64,000 nucleotides of DNA from Bacteroidia bacterium (GCA_044341025.1 JBIISM010000013.1:643-64642), one strand, 5' to 3'. Positions 9,617 to 24,736 are shown, numbered from the stretch's first letter. Translations and numbers: made by a program. Notes: generated by a model from the sequence alone, not told the origin.

Positions 9617-9641
9617 ATTTTATATTTTTTTTAAAATATAA

Positions 9642-9672: not shown

Positions 9673-9724
9673 CAGTCCCTAAAAACGAAAAAGGTCTTGT
9701 ACTTCAAGTAGTTTAAAAGGAAAA

Positions 9725-9763
9725 GGGAGCTTAGCTCTCCCGATAGCTATCGGGAGGTTCAGA
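9725..9763 (+). pseudogene. Duplicated 5' fragment of tRNA-Val with an 18-bp perfect palindrome in the D-arm
   Basis: GGGAGCTTAGCTC + TCCCGATAGCTATCGGGA + GGTTCAGA, compared with the tRNA sequence GGGAGCTTAGCTC-AGCT-GGTTCAGA. Confidence 0.6.
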
Positions 9764-9790
9764 TCAAAACCTTTAACAGTTCATAAAAAA

Positions 9791-9865
9791 GGGAGCTTAG
9801 CTCAGCTGGTTCAGAGCATCTGCCTTACAAGCAGAGGGTCACTGGTTCGAACCCAGTAGCTCCCA
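9791..9865 (+). tRNA. tRNA-Val(TAC)
   Basis: Acceptor stem GGGAGCT/AGCTCCC-A, anticodon arm TCTGC-CTTACAA-GCAGA, T-loop GGTTCGAAC; CCA not encoded. Confidence 0.98.
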
Positions 9866-9867
9866 CT
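9816..9867 (+). repeat. attL: 52-bp direct repeat (3' part of tRNA-Val)
   Basis: Base-for-base identical to 24635-24686. Confidence 0.95.
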
Positions 9868-9875
9868 TAGAGAAC

Positions 9876-9913
9876 AAAGGGTTTCAGTCGTTTTAAGATT
9901 GAAACCCTTTTTT
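9876..9913 (+). terminator. Intrinsic terminator after tRNA-Val, supplied by the island
   Basis: AAAGGGTTTCAGTC...GATTGAAACCCTTT hairpin followed by a T-run. Confidence 0.6.
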
Positions 9914-9936
9914 CATTTGCACATAATTTGCACAAA
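9914..9936 (+). repeat. Putative integrase arm-type site, left end
   Basis: CATTTGCACATAATTTGCACAAA is identical to 24502-24524; it contains tandem TTTGCACA units. Confidence 0.7.
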
Positions 9937-10074
9937 TTCCTTCCGAAAACGGCTTTATTTAATTAGGTTTGAGTTATTCTCTTTAATGAATCAAATTTTA
10001 AAATAAAGACTTAAATCTATTTTTTAAAAATTACAATTAAAAATCAATTAGGTTTGTAAACAAAATACTTAATC

Positions 10075-10581
10075 ATGAAACTTAAAAATCACTTTAACTT
10101 ACTATTGGCTATTACTTTAATGTTTTCTATTTACTCTTGTAGTGGCAATAAAAACAATAACCAAACATCAACTAATGGGCAAGACTCTGTCATAGAGAAA
10201 GAGTGTGAGGCCTATTTAATCAATACACTTGATGACCCAAGCTCGTATCAAAGAATTTCAGTTAGTTTAGTTGATACGATTTATAAACTTCAAGACTTAG
10301 AAGATAACTTAGATATTTATTATCGGGAGGCTTACCAAATTGAAAAAGATTTGTCGCCGAAATCAGAAATCTTGGAAAAACAAAATAAAAGAGATTCAGT
10401 CTTAAAATTAATTGAATCAATAAAAGCAAACCCAGCCCGAAATGAAATATTGCACTATGTATACACATTAAGATACAGGGCAAAAAATAAAATGGGGGCA
10501 TTGGTAAAAGGGGCATCTGTGATTTATTATACTCCAACTGAAAAAGAAGGTTCTAAGTTTTTTATTTATTTAAACGAATAG
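10075..10581 (+). CDS. Hypothetical lipoprotein
   Basis: Lipobox IYSC followed by an Asn/Thr-rich linker; C-terminal YRAKNKMGA motif. Confidence 0.7.
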   Translation: MKLKNHFNLLLAITLMFSIYSCSGNKNNNQTSTNGQDSVIEKECEAYLINTLDDPSSYQRISVSLVDTIYKLQDLEDNLDIYYREAYQIEKDLSPKSEILEKQNKRDSVLKLIESIKANPARNEILHYVYTLRYRAKNKMGALVKGASVIYYTPTEKEGSKFFIYLNE

Positions 10582-10629
10582 TTATTAAGCCTTATGAATA
10601 TTCGTTGACAATTTCATTTTGACCGTAAT

Positions 10630-11451
10630 TTATTTGGAATAGATTTTATTTAACTTCTCAATAATTAAATGTTTTTGCTCTGTATCTCCAATTTTGGCAT
10701 CATTTCTAACCGCAGGGACAATTATTTTGTCGTTATCTAAAAACTTTAAACCAATCCCATAGTACTGACACATTTTCATTAATCTACCTGCTCTTGCATC
10801 TGTATTAGGTTTATAACAAAAGAAAAAAACATAGTCTGAAAATAATTTATAACCGCAGCATTGCGCAAATCCAATCAATTCTGACTCGTTATCAATTTTA
10901 TGTTTGACTTCAACAGAAACAACTAAGGCATGATTGCCTTGGATATTGATTCCGATTATATCAGGATTTGAGAACTTTCCTTGTCCATAAGCAATGGCAC
11001 CACCATTAACCATGTAACGAAAATTGACACCATCCAATGAGTAATTGTTTAACCATTCTTTTACTTCTGGATATAAATCCTTTTCAAGAATTTTTTCCTG
11101 ATGTATCTCAGCTAATAATTCCTTCTCTTGAGTTTTTAATATTTTTTTTGGTTTCAGATTTGGTGTTGAATTTGAGATTTCAAACCAATAATGCTTTATA
11201 CCCTTAATTGCTTTGCATTTGATTTTATCAGCCTCATACTTTCTCAAACTATTAACTGTCCGCAAAATACTATTTCGGTGAATGCCTTTTCCTCGTCTTC
11301 TCCCTATGTTTATTTCAGTAAAAATTTCGGTGACTGTTTTTGCATTATTCCGATTTAATTTGACCAAAAACTCTGCAATTGTTTCAGCGCCATCTGAGAG
11401 GAGTGCAATACTTCTAAACTCAATATTACCAATAAGTACTTTTTTTACCAT
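10630..11451 (-). CDS. N-terminal HTH-like domain plus PD-(D/E)xK endonuclease (HrgA/COG2958-like)
   Basis: EKDLYPEVKEWL...NPDIIG...SVEVK...GFAQ pattern of a restriction-endonuclease fold; basic helical N-terminus. Confidence 0.6.
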   Translation of the reverse strand: MVKKVLIGNIEFRSIALLSDGAETIAEFLVKLNRNNAKTVTEIFTEINIGRRRGKGIHRNSILRTVNSLRKYEADKIKCKAIKGIKHYWFEISNSTPNLKPKKILKTQEKELLAEIHQEKILEKDLYPEVKEWLNNYSLDGVNFRYMVNGGAIAYGQGKFSNPDIIGINIQGNHALVVSVEVKHKIDNESELIGFAQCCGYKLFSDYVFFFCYKPNTDARAGRLMKMCQYYGIGLKFLDNDKIIVPAVRNDAKIGDTEQKHLIIEKLNKIYSK

Positions 11452-11472
11452 ATTTGTTTATGAAATTTAGAA

Positions 11473-12492
11473 CTATATGATATAAAGTTGTGCTGAATCA
11501 ACTAATTGCCTCTTAATAGCAACAATACTATCAATACTTGTGACTTCGATTTTTTGCCCACCATTAATTTCTATAAAGTGCTTGTTTTTAGCACTGGTAA
11601 TTTTACATATTGTTTTCTTGTTATTGTCATCAACCAAAATGTTGAAACTGTTCTTTTGGTCTCGATAAGATATTCTTGAAGAATCGAACTTCTTCAAAGA
11701 ATTTATTAATAATGTCTTTACTGTGTGGTAAATTTTCAATTCTTCAGCTGTAGTAATAACAATACTTCCATTTTTAGATTCTTCTTCAATGACTTTAGGC
11801 AATGCATTTTGAATAGCATTAGAATTGATTAGATTTTTAATTTTGGTTTTAATTGTATCTGTCATTCTTTGCCCTTCCATCCTCGAGAAAATTGCTTTAA
11901 TAAATCCTTCTGAGGGGTCTGAAAGTTCTGAAGCCAATGCATCTGCAAATCCTTCTAAGAAATAAAAAACTTGGGCCTCTTCATAAAGCTCTTTTAAATC
12001 AATGTTATTCTTGTGTAATTTTGATAAGTTATCTAACAAATCATCATTAATTTCTTTAAAATCTAAAACTAAAAAAGGAACTTCATACAATTTCATCTCT
12101 TTCTTAGCTTCGTTAGGAAAATAAATTCTCCATTCTAAACCATTTGTTAAAATTCCAAATTTTGAATTTTGGGTATTAATAAAATAATTATTTAACTGAG
12201 AGGCTTCTTTATCGGTTAACTTCTTCCCATGTGTTTTGCATTCTACTATAACCTCAGGTATTTTACCTTTTACAATCAAACCTATGTCAGCTTTATCATT
12301 TTTCTTACCCCATCCAGCATTAATTTCAGTTGCCTGATCATCGATACGACTATATCCTAGTATTTCTAAAATTGGTTCAATCACAACATGACGAGTTTGT
12401 GCTTCATTAGTGCATCGTTCATCTAATCTAGATAAGTCAAACTTCGACATAGACTTCTTTATTGCATTTACGATTTGTTTGTTAACTGGCAT
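11473..12492 (-). CDS. HsdR N-terminal-domain (PD-(D/E)xK) endonuclease-like protein (COG4748-like)
   Basis: NEAQTRHVVIEPILEILGY...KADIGL...IVECK...QLNNYF...GILTNGLEWR; no helicase motifs follow. Confidence 0.8.
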   Translation of the reverse strand: MPVNKQIVNAIKKSMSKFDLSRLDERCTNEAQTRHVVIEPILEILGYSRIDDQATEINAGWGKKNDKADIGLIVKGKIPEVIVECKTHGKKLTDKEASQLNNYFINTQNSKFGILTNGLEWRIYFPNEAKKEMKLYEVPFLVLDFKEINDDLLDNLSKLHKNNIDLKELYEEAQVFYFLEGFADALASELSDPSEGFIKAIFSRMEGQRMTDTIKTKIKNLINSNAIQNALPKVIEEESKNGSIVITTAEELKIYHTVKTLLINSLKKFDSSRISYRDQKNSFNILVDDNNKKTICKITSAKNKHFIEINGGQKIEVTSIDSIVAIKRQLVDSAQLYII

Positions 12493-12627
12493 ATGATTCT
12501 ATTTTGGGGTAAAGGTATTTATTTTTATATCATTTTTTAAATTAAAATTTAGATGTTAACAGATGAAATATCCGCTAATTCATTAAATCACAACAAAGTG
12601 CTGTTTTTTGGATGATAAGAATTACTT

Positions 12628-13716
12628 TTGAAACTATTACTTACGTCTATTAGGTTTTTAAATTTATTATTAATGAATAAAATACTTCACACTTATTTTT
12701 TTGGCTATCTTTCATATCGGTACAGGAGACTTATAAGGTCATTATCAATTATTTTACTTGTTTTCACAATTATTATTGTCTTAATTAATATTTATCAACT
12801 TCATAACGATAAACAAATTAATTTTATTTACGAGAGATATGTCTCAACAGAATATGCTTCTCAAGACTTTTATACAACTTCTATTGGGAATGAGCGCACA
12901 AAATCATATTTAGTCAATAAATATGGTGATGAAGGATTTCAAAACCAAATAGATAATGGAATACTAACAAAGATGCAAAGTTGCATAAGACCAGACAAGG
13001 AATTTACTAAAAATGAATTTATAAATTCCTTGCCAACAAACAATGCACTTGGTTGCATTGCCTTTGCGATTGGGAAACAAGAAAATATGGAAGGAATTAA
13101 CAATTACAGAAATGCAGATGATTTTATATTAAAAGGTTTAAAAATTCGTTATTTTAATACGCCCTTTCCATTGGTACTATCAATCTTTATATATTGCATT
13201 TTAATTTGTGTGATTAGTTATTTGATAGAACCTTTTATACTTGAGAAAAGAAATAAAGTAGATGATTTAGGTTCAATCAAAAACAGTGAAAGTGCTTACA
13301 ATGAACCCAAAAATTTCTTTAAAAATATTATAATTAAAAATGATAACGTAAAGTTTGCTCAAGCTAGGTTTGACGAAAAAGGACCTAAAAAGAAATCAAG
13401 ATTTGATAATTATTTTACCTTCAATAATGAATACTTGAGCGGGACAAATTTCTGGATTAGGATGTTTGTAGGATGGTTAACGCTTGTAATATTCGGATTA
13501 GGGTTCTATATAATGCTAACAACAACCTACAAAAGGGCACAATCATTAGGCCTTAGTAAAGTCTTAGCAATAACATCTTGCATATATATTCCCATTATGA
13601 ATATTTTAACATTTTTGCTAATAAGAACTGATGATTCTGAAGTGAATTTATTAAAAGCAGTTATACTTGGTATTCCTTTTGCGTATTTTTATTTTAAAAA
13701 TGGCAAAAAAAAGTAA
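12628..13716 (+). CDS. Membrane protein with DUF805-like C-terminal TM domain (paralog 1; start may be 12673)
   Basis: TM - soluble loop - TM - linker, then YFTFNNEYLSGTNFWIR...YKRAQSLG with further TM helices. Confidence 0.65.
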   Translation: MKLLLTSIRFLNLLLMNKILHTYFFGYLSYRYRRLIRSLSIILLVFTIIIVLINIYQLHNDKQINFIYERYVSTEYASQDFYTTSIGNERTKSYLVNKYGDEGFQNQIDNGILTKMQSCIRPDKEFTKNEFINSLPTNNALGCIAFAIGKQENMEGINNYRNADDFILKGLKIRYFNTPFPLVLSIFIYCILICVISYLIEPFILEKRNKVDDLGSIKNSESAYNEPKNFFKNIIIKNDNVKFAQARFDEKGPKKKSRFDNYFTFNNEYLSGTNFWIRMFVGWLTLVIFGLGFYIMLTTTYKRAQSLGLSKVLAITSCIYIPIMNILTFLLIRTDDSEVNLLKAVILGIPFAYFYFKNGKKK

Positions 13717-13778
13717 GTCTTTTTTAAATATAAAACAGCTGATAAATTAATTAAATTCAATAGTAAATTAACTTAACT

Positions 13779-14894
13779 TTGATTATGAAATGGTTTAAAA
13801 TAGGAGAGTATTTTAATGGGATTAAATTCTTGAAAATAAACAACATTAGAAAGAAAATCGCATTTGAAATAATTATATTAATATTCACATCTCTAGTTTG
13901 CTCACTTATTTATTTGATTGGAGACTACTCAGAACATAAAAAAATAGCAAATCATGAAAGTAAGGTAGAAACAATAAAAATAGAAATTGATTCCTTAAAA
14001 AGTTATTATTATTTCAGGCGTGTATACTCTTGGTTAGATCAAAATGGCCATATAAGTGATTATACATATAATTCATTTAAGAAAAATATTCTCAAGGACA
14101 ATGATTCCTCATTTAGAAAAGATATTTATTATATAATATGCAGATCGGATCCAAGTTATAAAAATGAGTTTACATTTGAAGACTTTATCAATACATTGGA
14201 GGTCGATTCAATTGAACAAATAGATGAAGTCGATGAGCAGATTATAGCATTAGAAAAACAAAGTGAATTTCTTAATCAACATCCAACTGAATATAATGAC
14301 AGCTATGAATACCTAATTGGTATAATATTTTTCATTTGCTACCCTTTGCGATTTATTTATTATTTATTGAAATGGGCTTTCAAAACTCTAAAAGAGGAAG
14401 AAACAGCATCTAATACAAACCCAATAAAAAACAATACCCTTCTAATTGATGAATGCAAATCAATAGATGAAAAACCAAACAATTTAAGCAGCTATAAAAA
14501 AGAAATATCGCCATCAAAAAGTCGCCAGCACAAAATGGAGAAAAAAGGATATAAAATTAGACTAAAAAAATATTTTACTAATAGCGACGAATATATTAAC
14601 GGAAATCAGTTCTGGATGAGATCGTTCCTGGGCGCTATCACAATCCCTCTGTTTGGATTGGGCTTGTATTTAATATTTTTAGCAGCTTATAAAAGATGCA
14701 AGTCAGTTGGATTTGACAAAACCGTATCAAAAATATGCTCACATCTTTTAGTGCTAGTAAGCATAATTTCACCTTTTCTTCCATTGGTTTTACCTAAGAT
14801 ATATAATTACTCCTTTGAGGAAGTGTTATTCGTTGAGTTTTTACTTAGTTTACCTTTTGTCTATTTACACTTAACAAATGGTGCGAGAAAGTAA
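13779..14894 (+). CDS. Membrane protein with DUF805-like C-terminal TM domain (paralog 2)
   Basis: Same topology as paralog 1; YFTNSDEYINGNQFWMR...YKRCKSVG. Confidence 0.65.
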   Translation: MIMKWFKIGEYFNGIKFLKINNIRKKIAFEIIILIFTSLVCSLIYLIGDYSEHKKIANHESKVETIKIEIDSLKSYYYFRRVYSWLDQNGHISDYTYNSFKKNILKDNDSSFRKDIYYIICRSDPSYKNEFTFEDFINTLEVDSIEQIDEVDEQIIALEKQSEFLNQHPTEYNDSYEYLIGIIFFICYPLRFIYYLLKWAFKTLKEEETASNTNPIKNNTLLIDECKSIDEKPNNLSSYKKEISPSKSRQHKMEKKGYKIRLKKYFTNSDEYINGNQFWMRSFLGAITIPLFGLGLYLIFLAAYKRCKSVGFDKTVSKICSHLLVLVSIISPFLPLVLPKIYNYSFEEVLFVEFLLSLPFVYLHLTNGARK

Positions 14895-14979
14895 TTAAAT
14901 TGGATATCACCTAAAAGTTTTATGTTTGGAGAAATATTTTCAACTTGAATGCGATAGCTAAGACAATAAAAAATAGATA

Positions 14980-16311
14980 ATGCCAGGAAGATTAACCACA
15001 AGGGGCTTTTTAGAAAGAGCAAAATTAGTTCATGGAGATAAGTACGATTATAGTAAAATAACTTATTTGTTTGAATCGGATAAGATTACTATTTTCTGCA
15101 TAAAACATCAAATAGATTTTCAGCAATCCGTTCAAAAACATTTAGCTGGGCAAGGTTGTAGAAAATGCTTTTCTGAAGCAAACGGAGATAGATGTCGAAC
15201 CAGTGTGGTTGAATTTGTTAAGAAAGCAAAAGCTATTCATGGAGACAAATACAACTATGATGGAATAGATTATAAAAACAACAACACAAACATAAAGATT
15301 AATTGCCCATTACATGGCGATTTTTTCCAAACACCCGGTAATCATACGCACAAGACTAATCCGCAAGGTTGTTCTGAATGCAGCGGCAGAACAAATTGGA
15401 CTCAGGAAAAGTTTATTAGTAAGGCAAGAGAAGTTCATGAAGGTCAATACAATTATGACAAGGTTAAATTTATTAATACTACCCAAAAAGTTAATATTCA
15501 TTGCCCTAAACATGGTATTTTTCCACAAACACCCAGCAAGCATCTAAGTGGACAGAAATGCCCAAAATGTGCTAGTAATTTTAGAGGGACGACTGAAAGT
15601 TTTATTGCAAAAGCAATAGAAATTCATGGAGAAAAATATTCATATGATAATACAAAATATATCAGTAATCATGAAAATGTATTTATAACCTGCCCAATTC
15701 ATGGAGATTTCGAGCAATCACCAGCAAATCATACACATAAGTCAAATCCCCAAGGCTGCCGAAAGTGTGCTGGACGCTATCCATTAAACACTTCTGAATT
15801 TATATTAAGAGCCAATGAGAAACACGATTATTATTATGACTACAGTAAAGTTGTATATGAAAGTATGACCTCAAAAGTTATAATACTTTGTCCTTTTCAT
15901 GGCGAATTTAATCAACAATCAAGCGTTCATTTGCAAGGTAGTGGTTGTCAAAAATGCAGGTTGCCAAAGGGAGAACAGAAGATCCAAAAAGCCCTAAAAG
16001 AATTTGATGTACAATTTGAACAACAATATTCTTTTCCAGATTGTAGAAATAAAAATCCTTTGCCTTTTGACTTCTTAGTCAGAATTGGAGAAAACCGGTT
16101 TTTAATTGAATTTAATGGAGAACAACACTATCGGCCTGTTAAATTTGGTGGGGGAGATGATAAAGGTGCTGATGAAACATTTGAAGAAGTAAAAAGGAGA
16201 GATGCAATTAAGTTGGAATATGCTAAGAAAAATAGAATCCCCTTATTGATAATAAAACAAGATGAAGCTAACAAGATTTCAGAGATTATTAAAGGTTTTT
16301 TAAACTTATAA
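14980..16311 (+). CDS. Five Cys/His (Zn-binding, DUF723-like) repeats plus a C-terminal PD-(D/E)xK/Vsr-like nuclease
   Basis: Five repeats of about 60 aa: F..KA...HG.KY.Y...I.CP.HG.F.Q.P..H...GC..C; C-terminal PFDF...IEFNGEQHY...RDAIK. Confidence 0.8.
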   Translation: MPGRLTTRGFLERAKLVHGDKYDYSKITYLFESDKITIFCIKHQIDFQQSVQKHLAGQGCRKCFSEANGDRCRTSVVEFVKKAKAIHGDKYNYDGIDYKNNNTNIKINCPLHGDFFQTPGNHTHKTNPQGCSECSGRTNWTQEKFISKAREVHEGQYNYDKVKFINTTQKVNIHCPKHGIFPQTPSKHLSGQKCPKCASNFRGTTESFIAKAIEIHGEKYSYDNTKYISNHENVFITCPIHGDFEQSPANHTHKSNPQGCRKCAGRYPLNTSEFILRANEKHDYYYDYSKVVYESMTSKVIILCPFHGEFNQQSSVHLQGSGCQKCRLPKGEQKIQKALKEFDVQFEQQYSFPDCRNKNPLPFDFLVRIGENRFLIEFNGEQHYRPVKFGGGDDKGADETFEEVKRRDAIKLEYAKKNRIPLLIIKQDEANKISEIIKGFLNL

Positions 16312-16394
16312 TGGAGTAAAATAAATCAAAGCATAAAGCAGAACCTTTTTGATATAATTGGGTTCGTGCAAGTTACTTACCGTTATTTGTTAAA

Positions 16395-16634
16395 TTAAAT
16401 ATCTATAAAAAGTGGCTTTTCAGTATTGCCCCCCCATTTCAGCAAATGGGAATTAAGAACAGTTGCCATCTCTAAGGTGTTATCATAATCATTTAAAAAT
16501 ATACCTATGAAGGGGTTGCAGGATTGAACAACTATTAAATATTGGGCTGGGGTTAATATATTGCTTTCCCCCAATTTAATAAGTTCTTTAATGCTGTTTA
16601 CTTTTAGTTTAGTTTCTTTGTTTTCCATTATCAT
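16395..16634 (-). CDS. Small hypothetical protein, paralog of 20794-21045
   Basis: First 50 aa identical to those of the 20794-21045 product. Confidence 0.6.
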   Translation of the reverse strand: MIMENKETKLKVNSIKELIKLGESNILTPAQYLIVVQSCNPFIGIFLNDYDNTLEMATVLNSHLLKWGGNTEKPLFIDI

Positions 16635-16890
16635 AAAGGGTTTATATCGTCTGAATATTTAACAATTACTTCAATCGGCTTAAATTGTTCTTTATCTTCA
16701 ATTGTGTTCCTGTCTGTCATTCCTAATTTGTTTTTAGCATAGAATATACCTTTGCCCTCATTTGCGACAATATCAATCGAAAGTGCATCAAATATACCCT
16801 CAATGTTTTTTATAGTGTGCATCACGGTTTCGTCTTCACTTCTTAACCAGTTGTAATAAGTAGACCTGCACAATGTCGGCTTTTCTTTTA
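16631..16890 (-). pseudogene. 3' half of a small-terminase gene (sister copy of 21042-21524)
   Basis: Near-identical DNA to about 21042-21301; homology ends abruptly at 16890. Confidence 0.75.
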
Positions 16891-17580
16891 CAATGGGTGA
16901 ACGGCTGGGGGTGGCTCGGTGGCTTCAGGTACAGGCAGGGCAAACTCTTTGTAATCGAATTTTATTAAATAGTCGGCAAGGTCAAACCCTTGTTTCTTTT
17001 CGGCTTCGGTTGCTTTTCGTTCCAATAAATCGGAAACGGTAAAATTCGCAAGGTGTGAAAGTTCCTTTGCCTTGCTGCTCCATTTATCAAACCCGTTGAG
17101 GTCGGGAAATAGTATAACCGTTCGCCCTTTTAATACGCCACACTTTTCAGCGTTCAGGTTGGTAAGGCTGCCAACTGCAACCCAAATAAATTGGGGTAAA
17201 TAAACGCTGGCAATTATAGCCGTTTTTTCGCTTTCAACTATTGCAACGGGTTTTGTTTTATCATTTAACAAGTGTTCCCCAAACAAACATTGCCTTAACT
17301 CAAATTCAGGCTGTTTAAGGGCTTTATGCACCCAGTACACAGGTATTTCAAGGTTCTTAACTCTTTTGCCTGTGGTGGGGCTGTAAAGTATAATTTTACC
17401 CGTTCTTACTTTGCCCTGTTTATCTATTTGCCAAAATACCGTTGCCCCGTTCAAATGTTTTGAGGTGGCAATAAAATAACGGCTTAGCAGTTGGCTGGCA
17501 ACCTCAACCCCGAACAGGTTAATAAGGAACTGTATAAAATAGTTTGTTTCGTGTGCTTTTAGGCTGGCTTTAAATACCTC
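16888..17580 (-). pseudogene. C-terminal part of a DUF6371/PG0870-like toprim primase-type protein
   Basis: ATVFWQID...RTGKI, QCLFGEHLL, VAIVESEKTA, LFPD and DLADYL motifs. The first ~26 aa of the predicted ORF are antisense to another fragment. Confidence 0.7.
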
Positions 17581-17859
17581 AAACAAATTAAACAACGGAA
17601 TACCGAACAAATTTACGATGCTGAAAATGTTTGTGTTTGTCAAATTGATAAGCCTCATAATTTCTTACTATTTGAGTTTGTTAATTATGGCAAGGAATGG
17701 GAACACCTGAAACAGCATACCGAAAAGGATAAAGATAATCTGAACGAAAAGGTAAGCGAACTAAAGCAAAAAGGGCGAAGCCTTCGGGAAATAGGGGCTG
17801 AACTGGGTATTTCTCACACTAAAGCAGGTAGAATTTTAAAGGACTGTAACGCACTGTAA
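17575..17859 (+). pseudogene. 3' end of an AAA-ATPase/HTH gene of a Bacteroidota integrative element
   Basis: Frame YLKQIKQRNTEQIYD...GKEWEHLKQ...KGRSLREIGAELGISHTKAGRILK-stop, with a terminal HTH and no start. Confidence 0.6.
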
Positions 17860-17899
17860 CAACTGTAACACCCTGTTACAAGTGTTACACCTGTTACAC
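17843..17899. repeat. Three CTGTAAC repeats followed by three inverted TGTTACA repeats (iteron-like)
   Basis: ACTGTAAC at about 17843, 17853 and 17862; TGTTACA at about 17874, 17884 and 17892. Confidence 0.7.
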
Positions 17900-17914
17900 T
17901 AAAAAGGTAAATAA

Positions 17915-18178
17915 ATGAATGAACATAAATACATATTAGAACCATACAAAGGAATGAATACCCGTTACCGTTGCCCCAGTTGTCAGCAAAGGGATAAAAC
18001 CTTTTCGCTTTATATTGATAGGGAAACAGGCGAGCACATAAACTCCACCGTTGGCAGGTGCAACCGTGAGAGTAATTGCGGGCACCATTACACCCCGAAA
18101 CAATATTTTAAGGATAACGATATTTCATTTGATACACCCAAAGTATACAAGCCCCGAACTGCTCCAATCATACAAAAA
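17915..18178 (+). pseudogene. N-terminal Zn-binding part of a DUF6371/PG0870-like protein (ORF reads on to 18268 through unrelated DNA)
   Basis: YILEPYKG...CPSCQQ...FSLYID...VGRCNRESNCGHHYTPKQYF. Confidence 0.65.
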
Positions 18179-18203
18179 GTCGGGTGTTCTTTTTTGTTAT
18201 ACT

Positions 18204-18245
18204 GCAATACTCGCAAATTCGTTGTACCTCAATTTTTGAACTCAT
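18204..18245 (-). pseudogene. First 14 codons of a Zn-ribbon/HTH excisionase-type gene
   Basis: Reads MSSKIEVQRICEYC, which resembles the N-termini of Bacteroidota integrative-element HTH proteins (recalled, not searched). Confidence 0.4.
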
Positions 18246-18300
18246 TTTATATCTTTAAATATCTTTAAAGTGCAAAATAAAAAGGGATTAACCCTGTTTT

Positions 18301-18540
18301 TTGTACCTCGACTGCCTTAAGGTACAACGAAGGTACAAATATTCCATAAATAAACAACTATTACAGCAAAATAACCATATATTTGAAAGCATTAAAAAAG
18401 CCCTGAATTATAGGGCTTTATATAGGTTTTATATTGGTTTTGTGGGTGTTTCTTTTGGGGTAATTACTTTCCAATTCAGAAAGTAATAAATACTGATTTT
18501 TAGTTAGTTATAATTACGAGGTACAAATAGGGTACAAAAA
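18301..18540. other. Orphan att-like site: core inverted repeat with arm-type repeats on both sides
   Basis: ATTACTTTC-7 nt-GAAAGTAAT at 18463-18487; (G/A)GGTACAA repeats at 18301 (inverted), 18320, 18331, 18519 and 18530. Confidence 0.5.
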
Positions 18541-18654
18541 AACCCCTTTCTGAAATCATATCTCTGTTGTGAATTGGTTTTATTTTCTATCTTTGACATA
18601 GTTGAGCATTAATTTATTTGGAAAACAATATAAAACAGTAAATTCTTTTTATAT

Positions 18655-20103
18655 TTGTCACCAATAAAGATTAATATGAATTTAAAACATCTACTAACAA
18701 TTACAATTGCTGCATTGTTTTTAATGATTGCCGGCTCCTCTTCCGTAGTAAAGCTTCAAATGTTGCCTTCTCAGAAATTAGACGCAATAGTTAAAACAGT
18801 TCCAATAATAAAAACTACAACAAAGGATTTAGTCTTTTGTGTCTTACAAAATGAATTTTCAACTGAAGGTACTCAATCAGAAATTGAGAATATCCTTAGT
18901 AACAATGGTATAAGTGTAGTAGATATTAAAAATGCTCAACAAATTTATCAGGAACAAATTTTAAATAAAAATAGCCAAAAGACAACAATCGATTATTACA
19001 TATATATTGAAGAGGATAAAATAATTAACACTAATAACGAAGGGGATAATAAAAACTATTATTACCAGCTAATTGATGCAAAAAATTTTAAAGTAGTATT
19101 TGCTTCAAAGATAAACACTATTTCTTTTGAAAATTTCATGGAACCGTTCAATGGTGGTTCTAAAAAGATTGATTTGTCTTTTATTCAGTTTTACAAAACA
19201 AAAGCTTATTTAAAATATAATGAACTAATTGATTTAAAAAAAGATGATGAAATTTTAAAACAATCAGAAGTATTAATATCGGAAGGTAAATCGAAGTCAT
19301 TTCCTGAAAATACAAAATCGAAAGTTAAAGAAAGTTATTATTTAGATCAATATGCAATTTGTCTAAACCTTGCAACGCAATATTTACTAAACAAAGAATT
19401 TAGTAAATGTAATGAAGCTTCTAAGTTAGCCGTTACAATAGGTGAAAAAGTTACAAGATTATACAACAAAGAGACAGCTTATCTTGAAAAATTGAAAAAA
19501 AGTTCTTATATATATGAGACTGCTATTCAAGATTCTATTTATAGTTCAATTCAAAATTTAAGCGGAACTAAAAAATCTATCAATATTAGTAATGATTACA
19601 AAAATCCAGGTTACCAAATTGATAATAATGGTAGGATAAAAAAACTTTTATATTCAAATGCTGTTGTAACTTTATTTAAAACAAATCATAACATTTTAGA
19701 TATTTATGAACGGGAAATGGTTGATGATATACTAAATACAAACACAGAAGTTACACAAAAAGCAAAAGGTAATACTTCAGGTGCTGATTATTTATTATCT
19801 ATAACTCAAAATTCTTGGTCTATTCCAAGGGCAACTATAGAATATAAAAGTGAAAAAACTACAAATCGTGCAGGTGAACCAACTGTTGTTAGTTATAAAG
19901 TATTTAATTATGATATTAATTGTAAAATAACGGTTAAAATCACAAACAATAATAATGCAATCATTATTGGTTCAACTTCATTAGATTACTCCCAAAAGGG
20001 TTCATATAGAGAAGAGCAATTTTTTTCCAATTCGGCAATATTTAATGGGTTATTTGATGATGGTAAATTAAATAGTTTTTTCTCTAAAACCGTTAAATGG
20101 TAA
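18655..20103 (+). CDS. Exported hypothetical protein with helical middle and CsgG/HfaB-like segments
   Basis: N-terminal signal; DIYEREMVDDIL...GADYLLSIT resembles the CsgG fold. Confidence 0.5.
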   Translation: MSPIKINMNLKHLLTITIAALFLMIAGSSSVVKLQMLPSQKLDAIVKTVPIIKTTTKDLVFCVLQNEFSTEGTQSEIENILSNNGISVVDIKNAQQIYQEQILNKNSQKTTIDYYIYIEEDKIINTNNEGDNKNYYYQLIDAKNFKVVFASKINTISFENFMEPFNGGSKKIDLSFIQFYKTKAYLKYNELIDLKKDDEILKQSEVLISEGKSKSFPENTKSKVKESYYLDQYAICLNLATQYLLNKEFSKCNEASKLAVTIGEKVTRLYNKETAYLEKLKKSSYIYETAIQDSIYSSIQNLSGTKKSINISNDYKNPGYQIDNNGRIKKLLYSNAVVTLFKTNHNILDIYEREMVDDILNTNTEVTQKAKGNTSGADYLLSITQNSWSIPRATIEYKSEKTTNRAGEPTVVSYKVFNYDINCKITVKITNNNNAIIIGSTSLDYSQKGSYREEQFFSNSAIFNGLFDDGKLNSFFSKTVKW

Positions 20104-20465
20104 AAATAAATTTAACTATTTTTTTAAAAGTTATATTTGTTTTTTCTTTGTTAGGAGTTCCTTTAATTTTAGGGGTAATAATTTATCAAAATATTTATTG
20201 CATTAATTCTGGTATTGCTGATTATTTGCCAGACGCATTGTGGTCATGTTCATTATCGTTAGTCATATTAAAATTATGGAGCTGGAGATTAGACTTATAT
20301 AATATCAGTATAATTATATTTACACCAATTTTATTTGAGTTTTTACAGTACATAAATGTGTTTGAAGGCACAGCAGATATATTAGATATTGTTGTTTATT
20401 TGATTTCAATTTTTATTACAATTTTATTTGTGTCAGTTTTTAAGAAATTGAGAAAAGAAAAATGA
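20097..20465 (+). CDS. Small membrane protein (VanZ/DUF2809-like)
   Basis: Four TM helices with YLPDALWS, FEFLQ and GTADILDI motifs; overlaps the upstream stop. Confidence 0.6.
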   Translation: MVKINLTIFLKVIFVFSLLGVPLILGVIIYQNIYCINSGIADYLPDALWSCSLSLVILKLWSWRLDLYNISIIIFTPILFEFLQYINVFEGTADILDIVVYLISIFITILFVSVFKKLRKEK

Positions 20466-20521
20466 TTACATACGATAATTTTCTAGAAGACATATCGAAA
20501 TTTTATTTCACTTACTTCGTT

Positions 20522-20628
20522 GGTAAGGAATGGGAACACTTGAAACAGCATACCGAAAAGGACAAAGAAAACCAAAACGAAAAGGTAAGCGAATTAAGGC
20601 AGCAAGGGAAAAGTTATAGGGAAATAGC
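20522..20628 (+). pseudogene. Second remnant of the AAA/HTH 3' end
   Basis: GKEWEHLKQHTEKDKENQNEKVSELRQQGKSYREIA, homologous to 17689-17796. Confidence 0.6.
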
Positions 20629-20793
20629 GTTTGAAGATAGGATGCTTTGTGCAGCACCGATTTAGAATTAATAAATACTTCGCTTACATTATCTTTTGAA
20701 GATTCAATCCAATATCCATTTATTTCGTTTTGCATTGTAATAGTATAATGCACAAAGAACGAAAAGAATTTTATTAGTTGTTAGCTTTTTAAG

Positions 20794-21045
20794 TTATAAA
20801 TCAATTTCAGAATCTATGAAGATTGGTTTATCAAGGCTCGTTCCCCATTTTGACAGGTGCAATTTAAGTACATTTGCCATATAGAAGGTGTTAGCATAGT
20901 CGTTCAAAAAAATTCCTATGAAGGGGTTGCACGATTGAACAACTATTAAATATTGGGCTGGGGTTAATATATTGCTTTCCCCCAATTTAATAAGTTCTTT
21001 AATGCTATTTACTTTTAGTTTAGTTTCTTTGTTTTCCATTATCAT
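20794..21045 (-). CDS. Small hypothetical protein coupled to terS
   Basis: Overlaps the terS stop by 4 nt; a paralog lies at 16395-16634. Confidence 0.65.
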   Translation of the reverse strand: MIMENKETKLKVNSIKELIKLGESNILTPAQYLIVVQSCNPFIGIFLNDYANTFYMANVLKLHLSKWGTSLDKPIFIDSEIDL

Positions 21046-21524
21046 AAAGGGTTTATATCGTTTGAATATTTAACTATTACTTCAATCGGCTTAAATTGTT
21101 CTTTCTCTTCAATAGTTGCTTTGTCTGTCATTCCTAATTTGTTTTTAGCATAGAATATACCTTTGCCCTCATTTGCGACAATATCAATCGAAAGTGCATC
21201 AAATATACCCTCAATGTTTTTTATAGTGTGCATTACCGTTTCGTTTTCACTTCTTAACCAGTTGTAATAAGTTGACCTGCACAATGTCGGCTTTTCTTTT
21301 AAAGGCAGCCATATTTTAAGAAAGTATGCAATTGTTGGCAAATGCCTGTCAGATATTAGAACAACCTTACCGCTTGCTGTTGGGTGTTCTTTTTTATGGT
21401 TTAAACATTCTTTTATGTATTCCCATGCAAAAAGTTCTAATTGTTCTGGTGTTATTTCGTGTCTTAAAGTCATTTTTGTTTTAATTGATTTTACCTTTGA
21501 ATTATTAAAAGCACCATGCATCAA
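21042..21524 (-). CDS. Putative terminase small subunit (P22 gp3-like DNA-packaging protein)
   Basis: TPEQL..AWEYI, LPTIAYF, RSTYYNW and IFYAKNKLGMTDK align by eye with gp3-type TerS motifs. Confidence 0.65.
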   Translation of the reverse strand: MMHGAFNNSKVKSIKTKMTLRHEITPEQLELFAWEYIKECLNHKKEHPTASGKVVLISDRHLPTIAYFLKIWLPLKEKPTLCRSTYYNWLRSENETVMHTIKNIEGIFDALSIDIVANEGKGIFYAKNKLGMTDKATIEEKEQFKPIEVIVKYSNDINPL

Positions 21525-21540
21525 AAACTTTTGATGTACT

Positions 21541-21583
21541 ATCTTTAAATATCTTTATTAAATACCTTTATTATATATCTTTA
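21541..21583. repeat. Four A(T/C)CTTTA heptamers between rep and terS
   Basis: Copies at 21541, 21551, 21564 and 21577. Confidence 0.55.
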
Positions 21584-21597
21584 TAATGATACATTGT

Positions 21598-22548
21598 TTA
21601 AGATGTTGTTCTTTTGTTGTTCAATTGTTCTTTTATGGTTGCCTCAATTGTTGTAGTTATAATTTGTTGCTTCCACTTTTTATAGTTCTCAATGCTATTT
21701 TTAGCTTTAATATTTTCAGCATGTTCAACTAATTTTTGTAGTGGATATTTTTTGTTAATAGAAACCCAAATGCCTCGAGTACGATTAGAATAAATATTTA
21801 CATTCCAATTCAATTGCAGAATGTCTAAGAGTTTTTCCCAGTGGTGTCGCTTTTCATATTTGCTTTTTAATTCATCGTTTTTAATATCTGAAAACATACG
21901 ATTAAGAATTAATCCCTTATTTATTTTTGCAAATGATTTAATGCCAATAATTGAATTGATTGAAACAAATGCCAACAGTTGAATAATTTCAAATTCATGT
22001 CTATTAGAATCTCTATAATCAAATAACAAGTGTGTTCCTATCATTGGCATTATCTCTTTAGGCTTTATTTGCATTTTAATGCATTTTGCAGTGTTTTTTA
22101 TTGTAGGGATGTCGCCGCTCAGATTCAGGAGCTTTAGAGCTTGTTTAATGCGGTAAAATTCAATACACAATGATTCAAACAATGAATCAACTTCAAACAA
22201 GTTTAACAACTCATTTATTTCATCTTCTGGGTTGAAATTTTCGTCACTGAATCCATTATAATCGTCGTCTTTTCCAAAATATTCAAATTCTTGTTTTTTT
22301 AATTTTTTAATAATATCTGAATCCAAATTTCCTCTGTAATTATTATAACATATTTGCCTTGCAACATTGTTTAAATCATATTCAATAGCCATTGCATAAC
22401 GGTAAATCCCATAATTTAAAATATTATTTATTGATTCAACTTTGTTTTCTAAGATATCATGCAATAAAAACAGTGGGAATTGAACATATTTTCTAGGCAA
22501 AGATTTTTCAATAGTTAAATTATTAGCCACAATTACAACTCCCCCCAT
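21598..22548 (-). CDS. Hypothetical protein, possibly a replication initiator
   Basis: Position after int-xis; Thr/Asn/Gln-rich C-terminus encoded by short DNA repeats. No diagnostic motif recognised. Confidence 0.5.
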   Translation of the reverse strand: MGGVVIVANNLTIEKSLPRKYVQFPLFLLHDILENKVESINNILNYGIYRYAMAIEYDLNNVARQICYNNYRGNLDSDIIKKLKKQEFEYFGKDDDYNGFSDENFNPEDEINELLNLFEVDSLFESLCIEFYRIKQALKLLNLSGDIPTIKNTAKCIKMQIKPKEIMPMIGTHLLFDYRDSNRHEFEIIQLLAFVSINSIIGIKSFAKINKGLILNRMFSDIKNDELKSKYEKRHHWEKLLDILQLNWNVNIYSNRTRGIWVSINKKYPLQKLVEHAENIKAKNSIENYKKWKQQIITTTIEATIKEQLNNKRTTS

Positions 22549-22684
22549 ATAAGCAAATTAAAATAGCAAGTGTTTCAGGCTCTATAGAGAGCTTTGATGA
22601 TAGTTTCTTTAGTGTTGCGATTGAGATGTTAGACAAGTGTTTCACAGTGTCTAATAATGCAAATAAATCCGTTTTGTTTCCCAT
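22523..22684 (-). CDS. Possible 53-aa protein between xis and rep
   Basis: Open frame MGNKTDLFALLD...CNCG-stop fills the intergenic gap; it is below the ORF-track cutoff. Confidence 0.3.
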   Translation of the reverse strand: MGNKTDLFALLDTVKHLSNISIATLKKLSSKLSIEPETLAILICLYGGSCNCG

Positions 22685-22701
22685 ACTATAATATCTTTGT
22701 A

Positions 22702-23058
22702 TTAGTATAATTTGGAAGTACTTTCTACTTTTTTCAATCCATCGAGTGTTGCCTTTGCAATTTCTGAATTTGTTTCTCTTCTCCCAGACTTTAAATAGTC
22801 CATCAATTCAGATTCGACAAAATAAAGTCGGTTGTTTTGTTTTAAACATGGTAATTCCCTTTTACTGACTTTAGAATAAATAGTTGGGACACTTAGATTT
22901 AAGAAACTTCCTGCTTGTTTAATCGTCAATAAATTATCTTTATTGTTAGTCAGGTTTTTTTCACTTGATAATAGGTTTTCTATAGTTTCAAGTTTTTGGA
23001 ATAGAATGCTTACCATCTCGGGAAGCATATCAAAGGAAATTTTATTGTTTGGTGTCAT
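22702..23058 (-). CDS. HTH_17-type excisionase / DNA-binding protein
   Basis: LLTIKQAGSFLNLSVPTIYSKVSKRELP...LYF..SEL..YL.SGR. Confidence 0.88.
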   Translation of the reverse strand: MTPNNKISFDMLPEMVSILFQKLETIENLLSSEKNLTNNKDNLLTIKQAGSFLNLSVPTIYSKVSKRELPCLKQNNRLYFVESELMDYLKSGRRETNSEIAKATLDGLKKVESTSKLY

Positions 23059-23207
23059 TACTAAGATTATATTGTTTTAGTATGCGAATACAATGTTCTC
23101 TTAATAATTGTTGATAATTGACTTGTTTTTATTCCGTATAGTTTTGTTTAAGTGTGTTTTTTATGGGGTTTAAGCAATTTTTATTGATATTAAAATTGTG
23201 AATAATT

Positions 23208-24470
23208 TTAAAAGCTAATTAATTTTTTAGCATTATCTTTTTTAAGTTCATCTGGGAATTTCGCAATATAGTTTTCAGTGGTTTTAAGGTTGCTATGGTT
23301 CAAAGCTTCTTTAACATATTCAGAACCAAAGCCCATTCTAATCGCTCTGGTTGCAAATGAATGTCGAGCCCAATATGATGAAATCTTCTCTTCAACGCCA
23401 AGACTTAAAGCATATTTTTTAAAATGTTGATTTACAAAACGGGTAAAGTTTTGTGTTTTGGTTCTTTGTATCTCATTTGATTGGCTAATATCTAAAATTG
23501 GAAATATGTAGTTTTTGTCGCTTCTGTCTCTATTCCCATATTGTTCAATGACTTGTTTTGCAAAGTCAGTTAAATAAACTTTTACGGGCTTCAACTTGTC
23601 TTTTTTTGTCCTAATTGTTTTAGCTCTGTAAAATGTAAACATGTCACTCTGCATGTCTTTATATTTCAAGTTTAAAATGTCTTTCATGTTTATTCCATTG
23701 CATATGTATGAGAAAAACCAAAATGCCTTAGCTTTTTCTTGTTCTGTAGTTAATGGGTTGCCTTCAAAAAGTATTTTAAGCTGATTATCTGTCAAAGCCC
23801 TGTTTGAATTTTCAGCCGATGGCGGCGTGTAAAGATTTCTATCTTCACTCCCAAAGGGATAAATTGATTTATCGATTGTATTATCATTAATAGCTTTGTT
23901 GAAAATAGTTCTTAATGCCCTAACATACATTGAAACTGTTGTCCTACTTCTCTTTAAATCATTCAACATGAATCTTTCATAATCCTCTAAGAAGTCTTTG
24001 TTTATATCATGGAATGATATTTTCAGGATTTCTTTGTTACTTGTTGACCTAATGAAATTAATAATTGACTTTAAACTCAAACTGTAATTTGAAGCAGTTG
24101 AAATTTGACCGTTTTTTTGTAGCTTTTTGATTGCAAGTTCATAATGCTCAATAACATTTTCCTTATCAAACTTAATCCCAAACATGGTTTTTTCAAAAAC
24201 TTCAATATTAAAGGGTTTAATTTCCTTTGCTATTGTTATTGCTTCGTGTTCAATCGTCTTAAGTTTAAATTGCAATTCTTTAAATTCATTTTTGGGCTTT
24301 TGTGTTTCCCAAACTCTTGAAAATTCATCTTCAGTCATGTTAAAGCCAATATTGAAATATTTTCGCTCAGTGGTCTGTAATAAATACACTTTAAGTTTTA
24401 CTGGATATTTACCTTCCTTCAAAGCTCTTCTTGTATCTAAGTAGATTGAAATTGCAAATTCTTCTTTCAT
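23208..24470 (-). CDS. int: Tyrosine integrase (arm-binding, SAM-like and catalytic domains)
   Basis: IYLDTRR...YPVKL N-terminus; NGINMKD, RAKT, ARHSFAT and HSNLKTTENY motifs; adjacent to attR. Confidence 0.95.
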   Translation of the reverse strand: MKEEFAISIYLDTRRALKEGKYPVKLKVYLLQTTERKYFNIGFNMTEDEFSRVWETQKPKNEFKELQFKLKTIEHEAITIAKEIKPFNIEVFEKTMFGIKFDKENVIEHYELAIKKLQKNGQISTASNYSLSLKSIINFIRSTSNKEILKISFHDINKDFLEDYERFMLNDLKRSRTTVSMYVRALRTIFNKAINDNTIDKSIYPFGSEDRNLYTPPSAENSNRALTDNQLKILFEGNPLTTEQEKAKAFWFFSYICNGINMKDILNLKYKDMQSDMFTFYRAKTIRTKKDKLKPVKVYLTDFAKQVIEQYGNRDRSDKNYIFPILDISQSNEIQRTKTQNFTRFVNQHFKKYALSLGVEEKISSYWARHSFATRAIRMGFGSEYVKEALNHSNLKTTENYIAKFPDELKKDNAKKLISF

Positions 24471-24491
24471 TTTTAATCTTTTAAGTTATTA

Positions 24492-24524
24492 CAAAGATAA
24501 GCATTTGCACATAATTTGCACAAA
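24492..24524 (-). promoter_or_regulatory. Integrase promoter overlapping arm-type sites
   Basis: Minus-strand TATCTTTG at 24492-24499 and TTTG at 24521-24524 with 21-nt spacing. Confidence 0.5.
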
Positions 24525-24544
24525 AAATAACAAATTTGCACAAA
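24502..24544 (+). repeat. Putative integrase arm-type sites, right end
   Basis: 23-bp copy of 9914-9936 plus a third TTTGCACAAA at 24535. Confidence 0.7.
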
Positions 24545-24634
24545 AATAAACATAATAAAACATAGTAGGCATATTTTAAAACTCTATATTTGTAAAGGGT
24601 TTGCGCACTAATGCAAAGTTAAGATATATCGTTT

Positions 24635-24686
24635 GCATCTGCCTTACAAGCAGAGGGTCACTGGTTCGAACCCAGTAGCTCCCACT
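24635..24686 (+). repeat. attR: 52-bp duplicate of the tRNA-Val 3' part
   Basis: Identical to 9816-9867; lacks the tRNA 5' part. Confidence 0.95.
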
Positions 24687-24689
24687 GAT

Positions 24690-24736
24690 AAGAGAGTGAA
24701 TGTGAAAGCGAATGCGGAAACTTCACTCTCTTTTTT
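24690..24736 (+). terminator. Probable original tRNA-Val terminator
   Basis: AAGAGAGTGAA...TTCACTCTCTT stem followed by a T-run, directly after attR. Confidence 0.6.

Follow-up and report, generated by a model that had tools for sequence, protein, structure and literature searches.

The 64,000-nt stretch of DNA analysed here (Bacteroidia bacterium, GCA_044341025.1 JBIISM010000013.1:643-64642; hereafter the window) comes from a lake Bacteroidota bacterium and has an island of 14.8 kb integrated in its tRNA-Val gene. We interpret this island, with a probability of about 0.7, as a composite built on the backbone of a phage satellite of the type that encodes its own small terminase subunit (TerS), and assign this backbone to a large Bacteroidota family of very small integrative elements. 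It is most likely that the members of this family spread by taking over the capsids of phages. Satellites of phages have been studied in depth in Firmicutes and Gammaproteobacteria, and elsewhere have mostly been inferred from marine viromes. In a literature search that was not exhaustive we found no description of a Bacteroidota family with the order integrase (Int), excisionase (Xis), replication protein (Rep), TerS and a small protein that we term p83, and the family is apparently unnamed. It can be defined from sequence by the diagnostic signature of a satellite-clade TerS followed by p83.

Attachment sites and backbone genes

The 3' part of the tRNA-Val gene is duplicated by an exact 52-bp direct repeat, the two copies of which define the attachment (att) sites and are spaced by 14,819 bp. 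A partial tRNA is recognizable at attR (24613-24676; Rfam model positions 10-63, 30.8 bits), and as it begins 22 nt before the 52-bp repeat, the tRNA-like stretch of the element, which is diverged, exceeds the repeat in length. The motif ATTTGCACA has 6 matches in the window, 5 of them no more than about 130 nt away from the att cores, and its clusters at both ends of the island resemble arm-type integrase sites. The island has a GC content of 25-34%, except at 17-18 kb, where it is about 39%; that of the flanks is 33-43%. The intact backbone occupies 20794-24686 only, where the minus strand encodes, in order from attR, the integrase, an HTH_17 protein in the xis position, a 53-aa open reading frame (ORF), a 316-aa protein (p316), a repeat array, TerS and the 83-aa p83. 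All six backbone ORFs are intact. The attachment sites and backbone features are as follows.

9791..9866, plus strand: tRNA-Val (anticodon TAC), the integration target (ARAGORN; Rfam, 71.8 bits)
9816..9867, plus strand: attL, exact 52-bp direct repeat, left copy (repeat search)
9914..9936, plus strand: putative arm-type integrase sites, ATTTGCACA occurring twice some 50 nt inward of attL (motif scan)
20794..21045, minus strand: p83, 83 aa, its ATG overlapping the TerS stop (ATGA) (profile, position)
21042..21473, minus strand: P22 gp3-like TerS, 143 aa, the ORF extending to a TTG at 21524 (fold, gene context)
21519..21600, minus strand: putative origin, a repeat array followed by a hairpin (compared across relatives)
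21598..22548, minus strand: p316, 316 aa, putative replication initiator (position, weak fold matches)
22523..22684, minus strand: 53-aa ORF overlapping the start of the p316 gene (ORF call)
22702..23058, minus strand: HTH_17 protein (MerR/AlpA/excisionase-type), 118 aa, putative excisionase or regulator (Pfam, 1.2e-9)
23208..24470, minus strand: tyrosine integrase, 420 aa (Pfam Arm-DNA-bind_5, Phage_int_SAM_5 and Phage_integrase; phrog_1)
24502..24552, plus strand: putative arm-type sites, ATTTGCACA occurring three times in the gap from the int start to attR (motif scan)
24635..24686, plus strand: attR, exact 52-bp direct repeat, right copy (repeat search)

The HSFATR and H..Y boxes of the integrase can be read from its sequence. 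The HTH_17 protein additionally gives a match to the TIGR01764 excise model below its cut-off, and the equivalent slot is occupied in all relatives. Those relatives that encode p316-type proteins have an ORF of 53-63 aa in the slot of the 53-aa ORF, the likeness being one of size and position. No ORF of the island matches capsid, portal, large terminase subunit (TerL), tail, lysis or relaxase families in Pfam, PHROGs or NCBIfam; the same searches returned no capsid-remodelling gene in the island, and there is no TerL homologue anywhere within the 64-kb window. An earlier note on this DNA had described a 14.8-kb tRNA-Val island within exact 52-bp att repeats, a co-directional order of int, xis, 316-aa gene, repeats, TerS and small ORF, and a lack of capsid, portal, TerL, tail and lysis genes; all of this is borne out, the boundaries by ARAGORN, Rfam and the repeat search and the absences by the three family databases, with relaxases now added to the missing functions.

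The backbone TerS and its phage counterparts

Four independent lines of evidence, from homologues, sequence signals, fold and gene context, establish that the TerS-like ORF of the window is a real small terminase. Its homologues form about 1,000 protein clusters, mostly of 138-151 aa, and because of these lengths translation probably starts at the ATG at 21473 (143 aa) and not at the TTG at 21524; the identity proposed in the earlier note thus stands, and its length of 160 aa probably does not. At the level of sequence, TerS gives a weak match to phrog_606 ('terminase small subunit'), and 14 of 37 family members give weak matches to Pfam GP3_package (best E 0.0036, under the 29.4-bit cut-off). 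Searches of PDB by sequence profile alone, with TerS as well as p316, gave nothing useful. The earlier note had made its reading depend on the protein modelling as a TerS, and it does: the AlphaFold2 model (pLDDT, the predicted per-residue confidence, 78) has a single clear PDB match, also its top one, to 3p9a, the small terminase gp3 of P22 (E 2e-3, probability 1.0, over 126 aligned columns), with the runner-up at an E of 0.5, and in BFVD, after one close homologue, the matches carry the names gp3 or small terminase. As membership rests on fold and gene context, we regard the protein as a remote relative of the GP3_package family and not as a member of it.

We consider the gene context decisive. 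More than 450 IMG/VR loci encode relatives of this TerS, and in about 63 of the 80 best loci a TerL gene lies directly downstream, often overlapping it. The adjoining TerL matches Terminase_6N/6C and phrog_2 (E 1e-48), and the TerS proteins of these phage loci are 47-54% identical to that of the window over a trimmed alignment. Several of the TerS-TerL contigs are 32-34 kb long with the terminase genes near one end; such Bacteroidota phages of about 33 kb, with a sister TerS beside TerL, are candidates for the helper lineage. In a neighbour-joining tree of 206 sequences all TerL-linked TerS proteins fall in one clade, and the other clade holds the window TerS, that of every context-checked satellite and all 120 best database matches. 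The C-terminal tails of TerS vary among satellites and among phages, and certain satellites have a tail that matches the one of a particular phage (e.g. ...MNIDPLSD of the relative L095 and ...LNIDPLDD of a phage), as helper matching would predict. A scan of IMG/VR for the window's own tail, as IVKYS[DN]DI, made in search of a helper, gave 4 matches, none of them in a TerS gene, which we judged to be due to chance.

A family of small TerL-less relatives

The TerL-less clade has a consistent layout, namely Int, in some cases a gene of no recognized family, HTH_17, a replication protein and TerS, followed by the gene for a protein of 67-83 aa, which overlaps the stop of TerS. This last protein, the counterpart of p83, has the motif YWxKW....E(K/R)P(I/L)FID, which is kept across relatives whatever their replication module. 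A p83 profile finds a match in each verified TerS-bearing satellite and in no phage locus, and we found no annotation for it. It is predicted to be a satellite-specific partner of TerS, and as such represents a new small protein and a candidate modulator of terminase. Most relatives are only 3.8-7 kb long, and beyond Int-Xis-[Rep]-TerS-p83 they have nothing phage-like in common. The family is seen mostly in freshwater, the runs containing the window sequence itself being lake-water metagenomes. Relatives include:

L001, 5.3 kb: int-xis-rep-TerS-p83 layout
L090 and L091: int-xis-rep-TerS-p83 layout
L094, about 3.8 kb: next to mnmE
L096, about 4.3 kb: int-xis-rep-TerS-p83 layout
L103, L110, L112-L114 and L120: further relatives with the int-xis-rep-TerS-p83 layout

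Unlike TerS and p83, the replication slot is filled by different proteins. One type is a Phage_CRI (G2P-type rolling-circle) Rep, found in L094 by precomputed Pfam assignments, at E values of about 8e-4, just below the Pfam cut-off, in L113 and L115, and by phmmer matches to the L094 Rep in L104 and L109. A second is a BT4734_N primase-helicase, accompanied by PriCT_1 and DUF3987 in L110 and consisting of BT4734_N only in L132. A third combines an AAA_25 ATPase with a Zn_ribbon_16/DUF6371 primase (L006, L103). Eight relatives were assembled with exact terminal repeats and are thus circles or head-to-tail arrays:

L006 (IMG/VR): 7050 bp
L104: 4364 bp
L109: 4753 bp
L113: 4135 bp
L115: 3892 bp
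L119: 5996 bp, p316 type
L120: 5718 bp
L122: 2517 bp, no integrase

In each of two independent runs L104 assembles, at 11-14x, as one closed contig without a chromosomal branch, and L006 closes as a circle in both other runs that have a contig across its ends. Rfam finds no tRNA-like attP in the circular relatives, implying that they integrate elsewhere, e.g. next to mnmE.

This uniformity bears on whether the island might be a decayed prophage stripped of its morphogenesis genes, which its location at a tRNA, its integrase, excisionase-like gene and terminase subunit, and the PHROG matches of some cargo proteins could suggest. We find neither morphogenesis or lysis genes nor their remnants in the island or its close relatives. 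The earlier note had looked to homologous elements for full morphogenesis gene sets or relaxases; morphogenesis, lysis and relaxase genes are absent from every context-checked relative with Int and TerS, and most of these elements, at 3.9-7 kb, are too small to hold such genes. More than 20 relatives retain the same minimal gene set, several of them as 4-6-kb circles, and the satellite TerS proteins form a clade of their own that always has p83 in place of TerL, a pattern that independent decay would not yield. A prophage origin is hence highly improbable.

Several relatives depart from the common plan. The 2517-bp circle L122 (contig positions 1-2640) encodes a 334-aa protein of no recognized family, a 53-aa ribbon-helix-helix-like protein, a 136-aa satellite-clade TerS and a 105-aa protein, and has neither integrase nor p83; it could be a minimal TerS-bearing plasmid-like satellite. 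In L088 and L089, which represent a close p316-type relative (66% identity) with the order Int, 239-aa protein, Xis, 63-aa protein and p302 and without p83, the TerS position is held by a 136-212-aa protein (L088:11078-11716, L089:11305-11715) that the TerS profile does not match, and which may be a different packaging or interference gene. A conserved mini-ORF in L001 (2815-2905) and L090 (11065-11151), which the window lacks, encodes a hydrophobic peptide of 26-27 aa (MLKGILIG...LILN(K/R)KK) and sits between the origin hairpin and TerS, with its stop overlapping the TerS start. The L104 element (Int-Xis-Phage_CRI Rep-TerS-p83) recurs nearly identically, with 90% or more of its indexed words, in no fewer than 20 public runs, which stem from many studies dated 2019-2025 and include three labelled 'fungus metagenome'; among the 3% of raw reads sampled from one run (X92) there were no L104 reads.

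p316 and a putative origin of replication

The p316 protein has 44 homologues, none of them annotated, and shows no Pfam match and no primase or replicase domain. Its AlphaFold2 model (pLDDT 90) is mostly helical, and its matches to the winged-helix parts of the replication initiators Cdt1, ORC and RepE are a hint only. A role as an HUH relaxase or Rep was rejected because of the lack of an invariant histidine and the all-helical, winged-helix-like model. Position counts as the stronger evidence here: p316 occupies the slot that in relatives is taken by Phage_CRI Reps or primases, and it adjoins a repeat array, both of which point to a role in replication.

The heptamer repeats reported in the earlier note are present, and they prove to be part of a larger structure. 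TAAAG(A/G)T occurs in 4 copies at 21540-21583 (17 in the whole window against 7.5 expected), and the TAAAGAT heptamers are the cores of 4-5 repeats with a period of about 13 nt, followed by the hairpin CATCAAA(N4)TTTGATG. In the window, L001, L090 and L089 alike, 4-6 direct repeats with a 13-14-nt period come right after the p316 stop and are followed by a hairpin beginning TACAT, the stems of which show paired changes (CATCAAA/TTTGATG, ACATCGA/TCGATGT, CATCGA/TCGATG and CATTGAAT/ATTCAATG). In L094 and L096, where another Rep precedes TerS, the genes abut without a repeat array, which ties the array to p316 and not to TerS. The alternative that the repeats are a TerS pac site was rejected on the same grounds, the array trailing p316 in every p316-type relative and being missing where another Rep abuts TerS. 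The array and hairpin are probably an iteron-type origin, with p316 as the predicted initiator.

A scan of reference genomes with close homologues of p316 as the query found a single locus, in an uncultured Chitinophaga metagenome-assembled genome, indicating that this replication type is rare in reference genomes. A distant homologue (L092:10001-10945, Mucilaginibacter, 35% identity) has no adjoining TerS and is flanked by a Fic protein on one side and a DUF6088/AbiEii pair on the other, next to a PRTRC-type (ThiF/E2/ubiquitin-like) cluster; other mobile elements, too, thus have p316-like proteins.

A proposed packaging mechanism

Based on the gene content we propose that Int and the HTH_17 Xis/AlpA-like protein would recombine the 52-bp att cores, aided by the ATTTGCACA arm sites on both sides, and that the excised circle would replicate from the repeat and hairpin origin beside the p316 gene, with p316 as initiator. 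The element's TerS, a diverged copy of the TerS of the phage group of about 33 kb, would then bind the element's DNA and recruit the TerL and procapsids of a helper, and the satellite DNA, probably as concatemers, would be packaged by headful. p83 would act with TerS, either aiding engagement of the helper TerL or blocking the helper TerS. With relatives of 4-7 kb and sister phages of about 33 kb, packaging of concatemers in full-size heads is the likely mode, and the rolling-circle Reps of many relatives fit such packaging. More tentatively, and with somewhat less than an even chance of being right, the family may comprise very abundant, Bacteroidota-specific packaging parasites of 2.5-7 kb, of which the only fixed parts are a captured phage TerS and p83, the integration and replication modules being freely swapped and p83 re-targeting or blocking the helper terminase. 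If so, they would be the smallest TerS-based satellites known and a major unrecognized route of gene transfer and phage interference in lakes.

The small circles with plasmid-type or rolling-circle Reps could also be read differently, as integrative plasmid-like or mobilizable elements that move by another route (mobilization by integrative and conjugative elements (ICEs), vesicles or transformation) and have co-opted TerS as a DNA-binding regulator or as a partition or replication accessory. The integrase-less 2.5-kb circle L122, the distant p316 homologue in a PRTRC/ICE-like region of a Mucilaginibacter contig and the fact that none of the element-bearing runs found is a virome would accord with this. 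Weighing against it, no relative examined encodes a relaxase, an oriT-type nickase or a coupling protein; TerS is, along its full length, about 50% identical to those TerS the genes of which overlap that of TerL; and TerS, together with p83, is the sole gene kept through all swaps of the replication module, as expected if packaging is selected. Staphylococcus aureus pathogenicity islands (SaPIs), tycheposons resembling phage-inducible chromosomal islands (PICIs) and some virion-encapsidated integrative mobile elements (VEIMEs) have likewise been read as satellites (PMC10085698, 10.1101/2020.12.28.424599, PMC9618062). We therefore consider the plasmid-like alternative distinctly unlikely.

Several observations nevertheless weigh against a capsid-hijacking satellite. 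We infer helper dependence and packaging, as well as the roles of p316, p83 and Xis; the fold matches of p316 are weak (E of 0.065 or more, template-modelling score about 0.2); no Stl- or cI-type master repressor was recognized in the island; and the C-terminal tail of the window TerS (IVKYSNDINPL) occurs in no phage TerS of the sampled loci. The element-bearing runs are labelled as bulk lake, freshwater and other environmental metagenomes, not as viromes. In the source run, where the flanks are at 15.4x and the island at 11-12.6x, there is neither a circle junction nor an empty-site contig, and the island, at 0.7-0.8x the depth of its flanks, is not amplified. This copy may also be less mobile than its small relatives, as it is 14.8 kb long and contains an internal repeat of 300 nt and a second module in decay. 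In a related strain from another lake run both flanks are at 9-10x with almost no island, and a contig begins inside attR; the island is thus polymorphic between strains. A 15,235-bp contig from another sample (JGI 3300059473) begins 366 nt before int; judging by its length it would span just the island plus about 200 nt on each side (window 9602-24836), and would be an integrated copy cut at assembly breaks and not a circle.

A composite island

The earlier note had implied a single clean element of SaPI-like size. Neither point survives: outside the intact backbone the island consists of cargo and a decayed, inverted second satellite, with a second, truncated TerS and small-ORF copy and a primase broken by inversion, and it is because of these additions that it reaches 14.8 kb, the family norm being 4-7 kb. 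The second satellite is of the L006 type, recognized by BLAST against L006, repeats and Pfam, and its parts and an isolated remnant are:

16395..18493, mixed strands: decayed second satellite, L006 type
16395-16634, minus strand: 79-aa p83 paralogue
16631-16873, minus strand: TerS without its N-terminal 65 or so aa
16888-17658, minus strand: part of a DUF6371 primase
17575-18161, plus strand: inverted segment with a C-terminal remnant of the ATPase and the N-terminus of a Zn_ribbon_16 primase (ORF 17915-18268)
18200-18493: L006-like non-coding DNA
20462..20665, plus strand: C-terminal remnant of an AAA_25-type replication ATPase as in L006 (repeat D2; BLAST match 20521-20635)

L006 positions 5193-5785 align with window 17575-18161 in one orientation (90%) and 5822-6570 with window 17582-16877 in the opposite one (81%), which reveals an inversion with one break within the primase; the un-inverted joint is present in a contig of a related element from run X4. 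There is no third att copy inside the island, and simple tandem integration at tRNA-Val can therefore not account for the second module. Two 300-nt direct repeats (16432-16731 and 20843-21142), 4.4 kb apart and 90% identical, consist of the 3' half of TerS and the 5' part of p83. Recombination between them would delete the genes for the 482-aa and 122-aa cargo proteins and the primase remnants.

This wreckage raises the question of whether the 14.8-kb copy is itself a fixed, immobile and decaying remnant of a real satellite family, which would be compatible with the satellite interpretation of its backbone. The inversion and deletions in the second satellite, the ATPase fragments, a size 2-3 times that usual in the family and the lack of an excision product in the source run are in keeping with this. 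Set against it are the intactness of the six backbone ORFs, the identity of the att repeats over 52 bp, arm sites on both sides, a near-identical strain without the island and the finding of an identical p316 on another contig and run, and we regard such fixation as rather unlikely.

The remaining ORFs are cargo:

10075..10581, plus strand: predicted lipoprotein, 168 aa (phrog_21933, unknown function)
10630..12492, minus strand: HSDR_N/PD-(D/E)xK-type nuclease (339 aa), then a 273-aa protein of no recognized family (Pfam; phrog_4225, 5e-51)
12628..14894, plus strand: two membrane proteins of 362 and 371 aa, no family match
14980..16311, plus strand: zinc-finger protein of 443 aa, its treble-clef fingers repeated and its C-terminal region of the homing/HNH endonuclease type (Pfam DUF723 and DUF4379; phrog_559, 7e-75)
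18655..20465, plus strand: secreted/lipoprotein-like protein (482 aa) and membrane protein (122 aa), no family match

The 362-aa and 371-aa membrane proteins are alike in size and C-terminal sequence, their paralogy being judged by eye. The HSDR_N nuclease has a full-length homologue in the cargo of the circular satellite L120 (30% identity, E 2e-37) and is thus a recurrent accessory gene. The earlier note had seen a cargo of nucleases and membrane proteins, which is indeed there, and had taken it for a defence hotspot, for which PADLOC offers no convincing model: applied to the cargo, p316 and p83, it gave only two marginal matches (PDC-S32, 0.002; Cas4, 0.0045) and called no defence system. 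An anti-phage role of the cargo is possible but unsupported.

Relationship to known satellites and mobile elements

Among elements of the same phylum, the nonreplicating Bacteroides unit (NBU)-type elements of Bacteroides are similarly small, integrate in tRNA genes and have a tyrosine integrase and HTH_17-type genes; they carry a relaxase/mobilization gene and oriT and no TerS, whereas the island has a TerS, no relaxase or oriT. No relaxase domain is found in the island ORFs or the relatives, and p316 lacks an invariant histidine motif.

The closest parallels are with SaPI-type PICIs (PMC10085698), which also possess an integrase, a regulator or excisionase of the AlpA/MerR type (a candidate role of the HTH_17 protein here), a replication module next to origin repeats, their own TerS and accessory genes after terS, integrate site-specifically and have no structural or lysis genes. 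Unlike them, the island has a Bacteroidota host, a replication protein unrelated to Pri-Rep and neither a capsid-remodelling gene nor a recognized Stl-like repressor; its family measures 4-7 kb as a norm, compared with about 9.5-15 kb in PICIs, and has a P22 gp3-like TerS followed by a family-specific small protein. With respect to the features by which PICIs are recognized (PMC10085698), the island has an integrase and a small terminase and no tail, holin, portal or connector genes. For regulation (alpA/merR/stl) the HTH_17 protein is a candidate, its domain covering AlpA, excisionase and MerR types. The island lacks a homologous primase-replicase, p316 having no such domain and the sole primase (DUF6371/Zn_ribbon_16) being broken, and it lacks a capsid-remodelling gene, as do Type B PICIs (PMC10085698). 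The core of the earlier note's PICI-like reading, a satellite that works like a PICI, is thus retained, and formal PICI membership is not supported, given the unrelated replication protein and the missing capsid-remodelling gene. Since more than 99.9% of the PICIs detected by the core profiles of current tools came from Proteobacteria or Firmicutes (PMC10085698), these tools would likely miss the present family, and a profile set built from it could find such satellites.

VEIMEs are defined by recovery from virus particles as concatemeric repeats, and some are integrated in marine Flavobacteria (PMC9618062). Like the present elements they are small, bear integrases, lack capsid genes and in some cases have a TerS closest to that of a co-occurring phage, and rolling-circle or plasmid-like replication with concatemer packaging has been proposed for them (PMC9618062). 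They are marine and come from particles, in contrast to the freshwater family of the window, which may overlap with a VEIME module. The circular assemblies of the relatives are compatible with VEIME-type concatemers and do not prove them. The PICMIs (phage-inducible chromosomal minimalist islands) of Vibrionaceae, elements of about 5-6 kb with an int-alpA-prim core next to fis, are packaged as concatemers in full-size capsids (PMC10803314). They share with the family minimalist size, an int, an alpA-type gene and a replication gene, and the lack of capsid remodelling (PMC10803314), and differ in having no terS, integrating beside fis, Vibrio hosts and unrelated proteins, where the island has terS, tRNA-Val and a Bacteroidota host. 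By analogy, PICMIs offer the best model for how 4-7-kb relatives might fill a capsid of about 33 kb; the filling of full-size heads with concatemers has been shown for PICMIs and for VEIMEs (PMC10803314, PMC9618062). The PICI-like tycheposons of Prochlorococcus resemble the island in their tRNA-targeting tyrosine recombinase, replication module and modular exchange and in having no packaging gene other than terS (or a capsid gene), and have been found in marine viral fractions (10.1101/2020.12.28.424599). They belong to another phylum and other protein families and have never been seen with extra cargo (10.1101/2020.12.28.424599), unlike the island with its 9 kb or so of cargo and debris. Against this background the family represents a natural experiment on the minimum gene set for terminase hijack, and, for genome annotation, accounts for a class of tiny islands with an integrase in the genomes of Bacteroidota.

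Chromosomal setting

The flanks are ordinary Bacteroidota chromosome, with coaX, birA and rsfS on the left, and a MazEF-like pair, type IX secretion C-terminal-domain proteins (CHU_C, Por_Secre_tail) and holA on the right. The toxin-antitoxin pair (25008-25567) lies just outside attR on the chromosomal side of the integration site, and comprises a 107-aa PemK/MazF toxin (Pfam, 4e-32) overlapped by an 81-aa antitoxin ORF without a Pfam match, labelled MazE/AbrB-like by eye from its N-terminal sequence. On the other side, the rsfS ORF (9032-9616) has a C-terminal extension made of 45-nt direct repeats (9454-9609) with Lys/Ala-rich coding.

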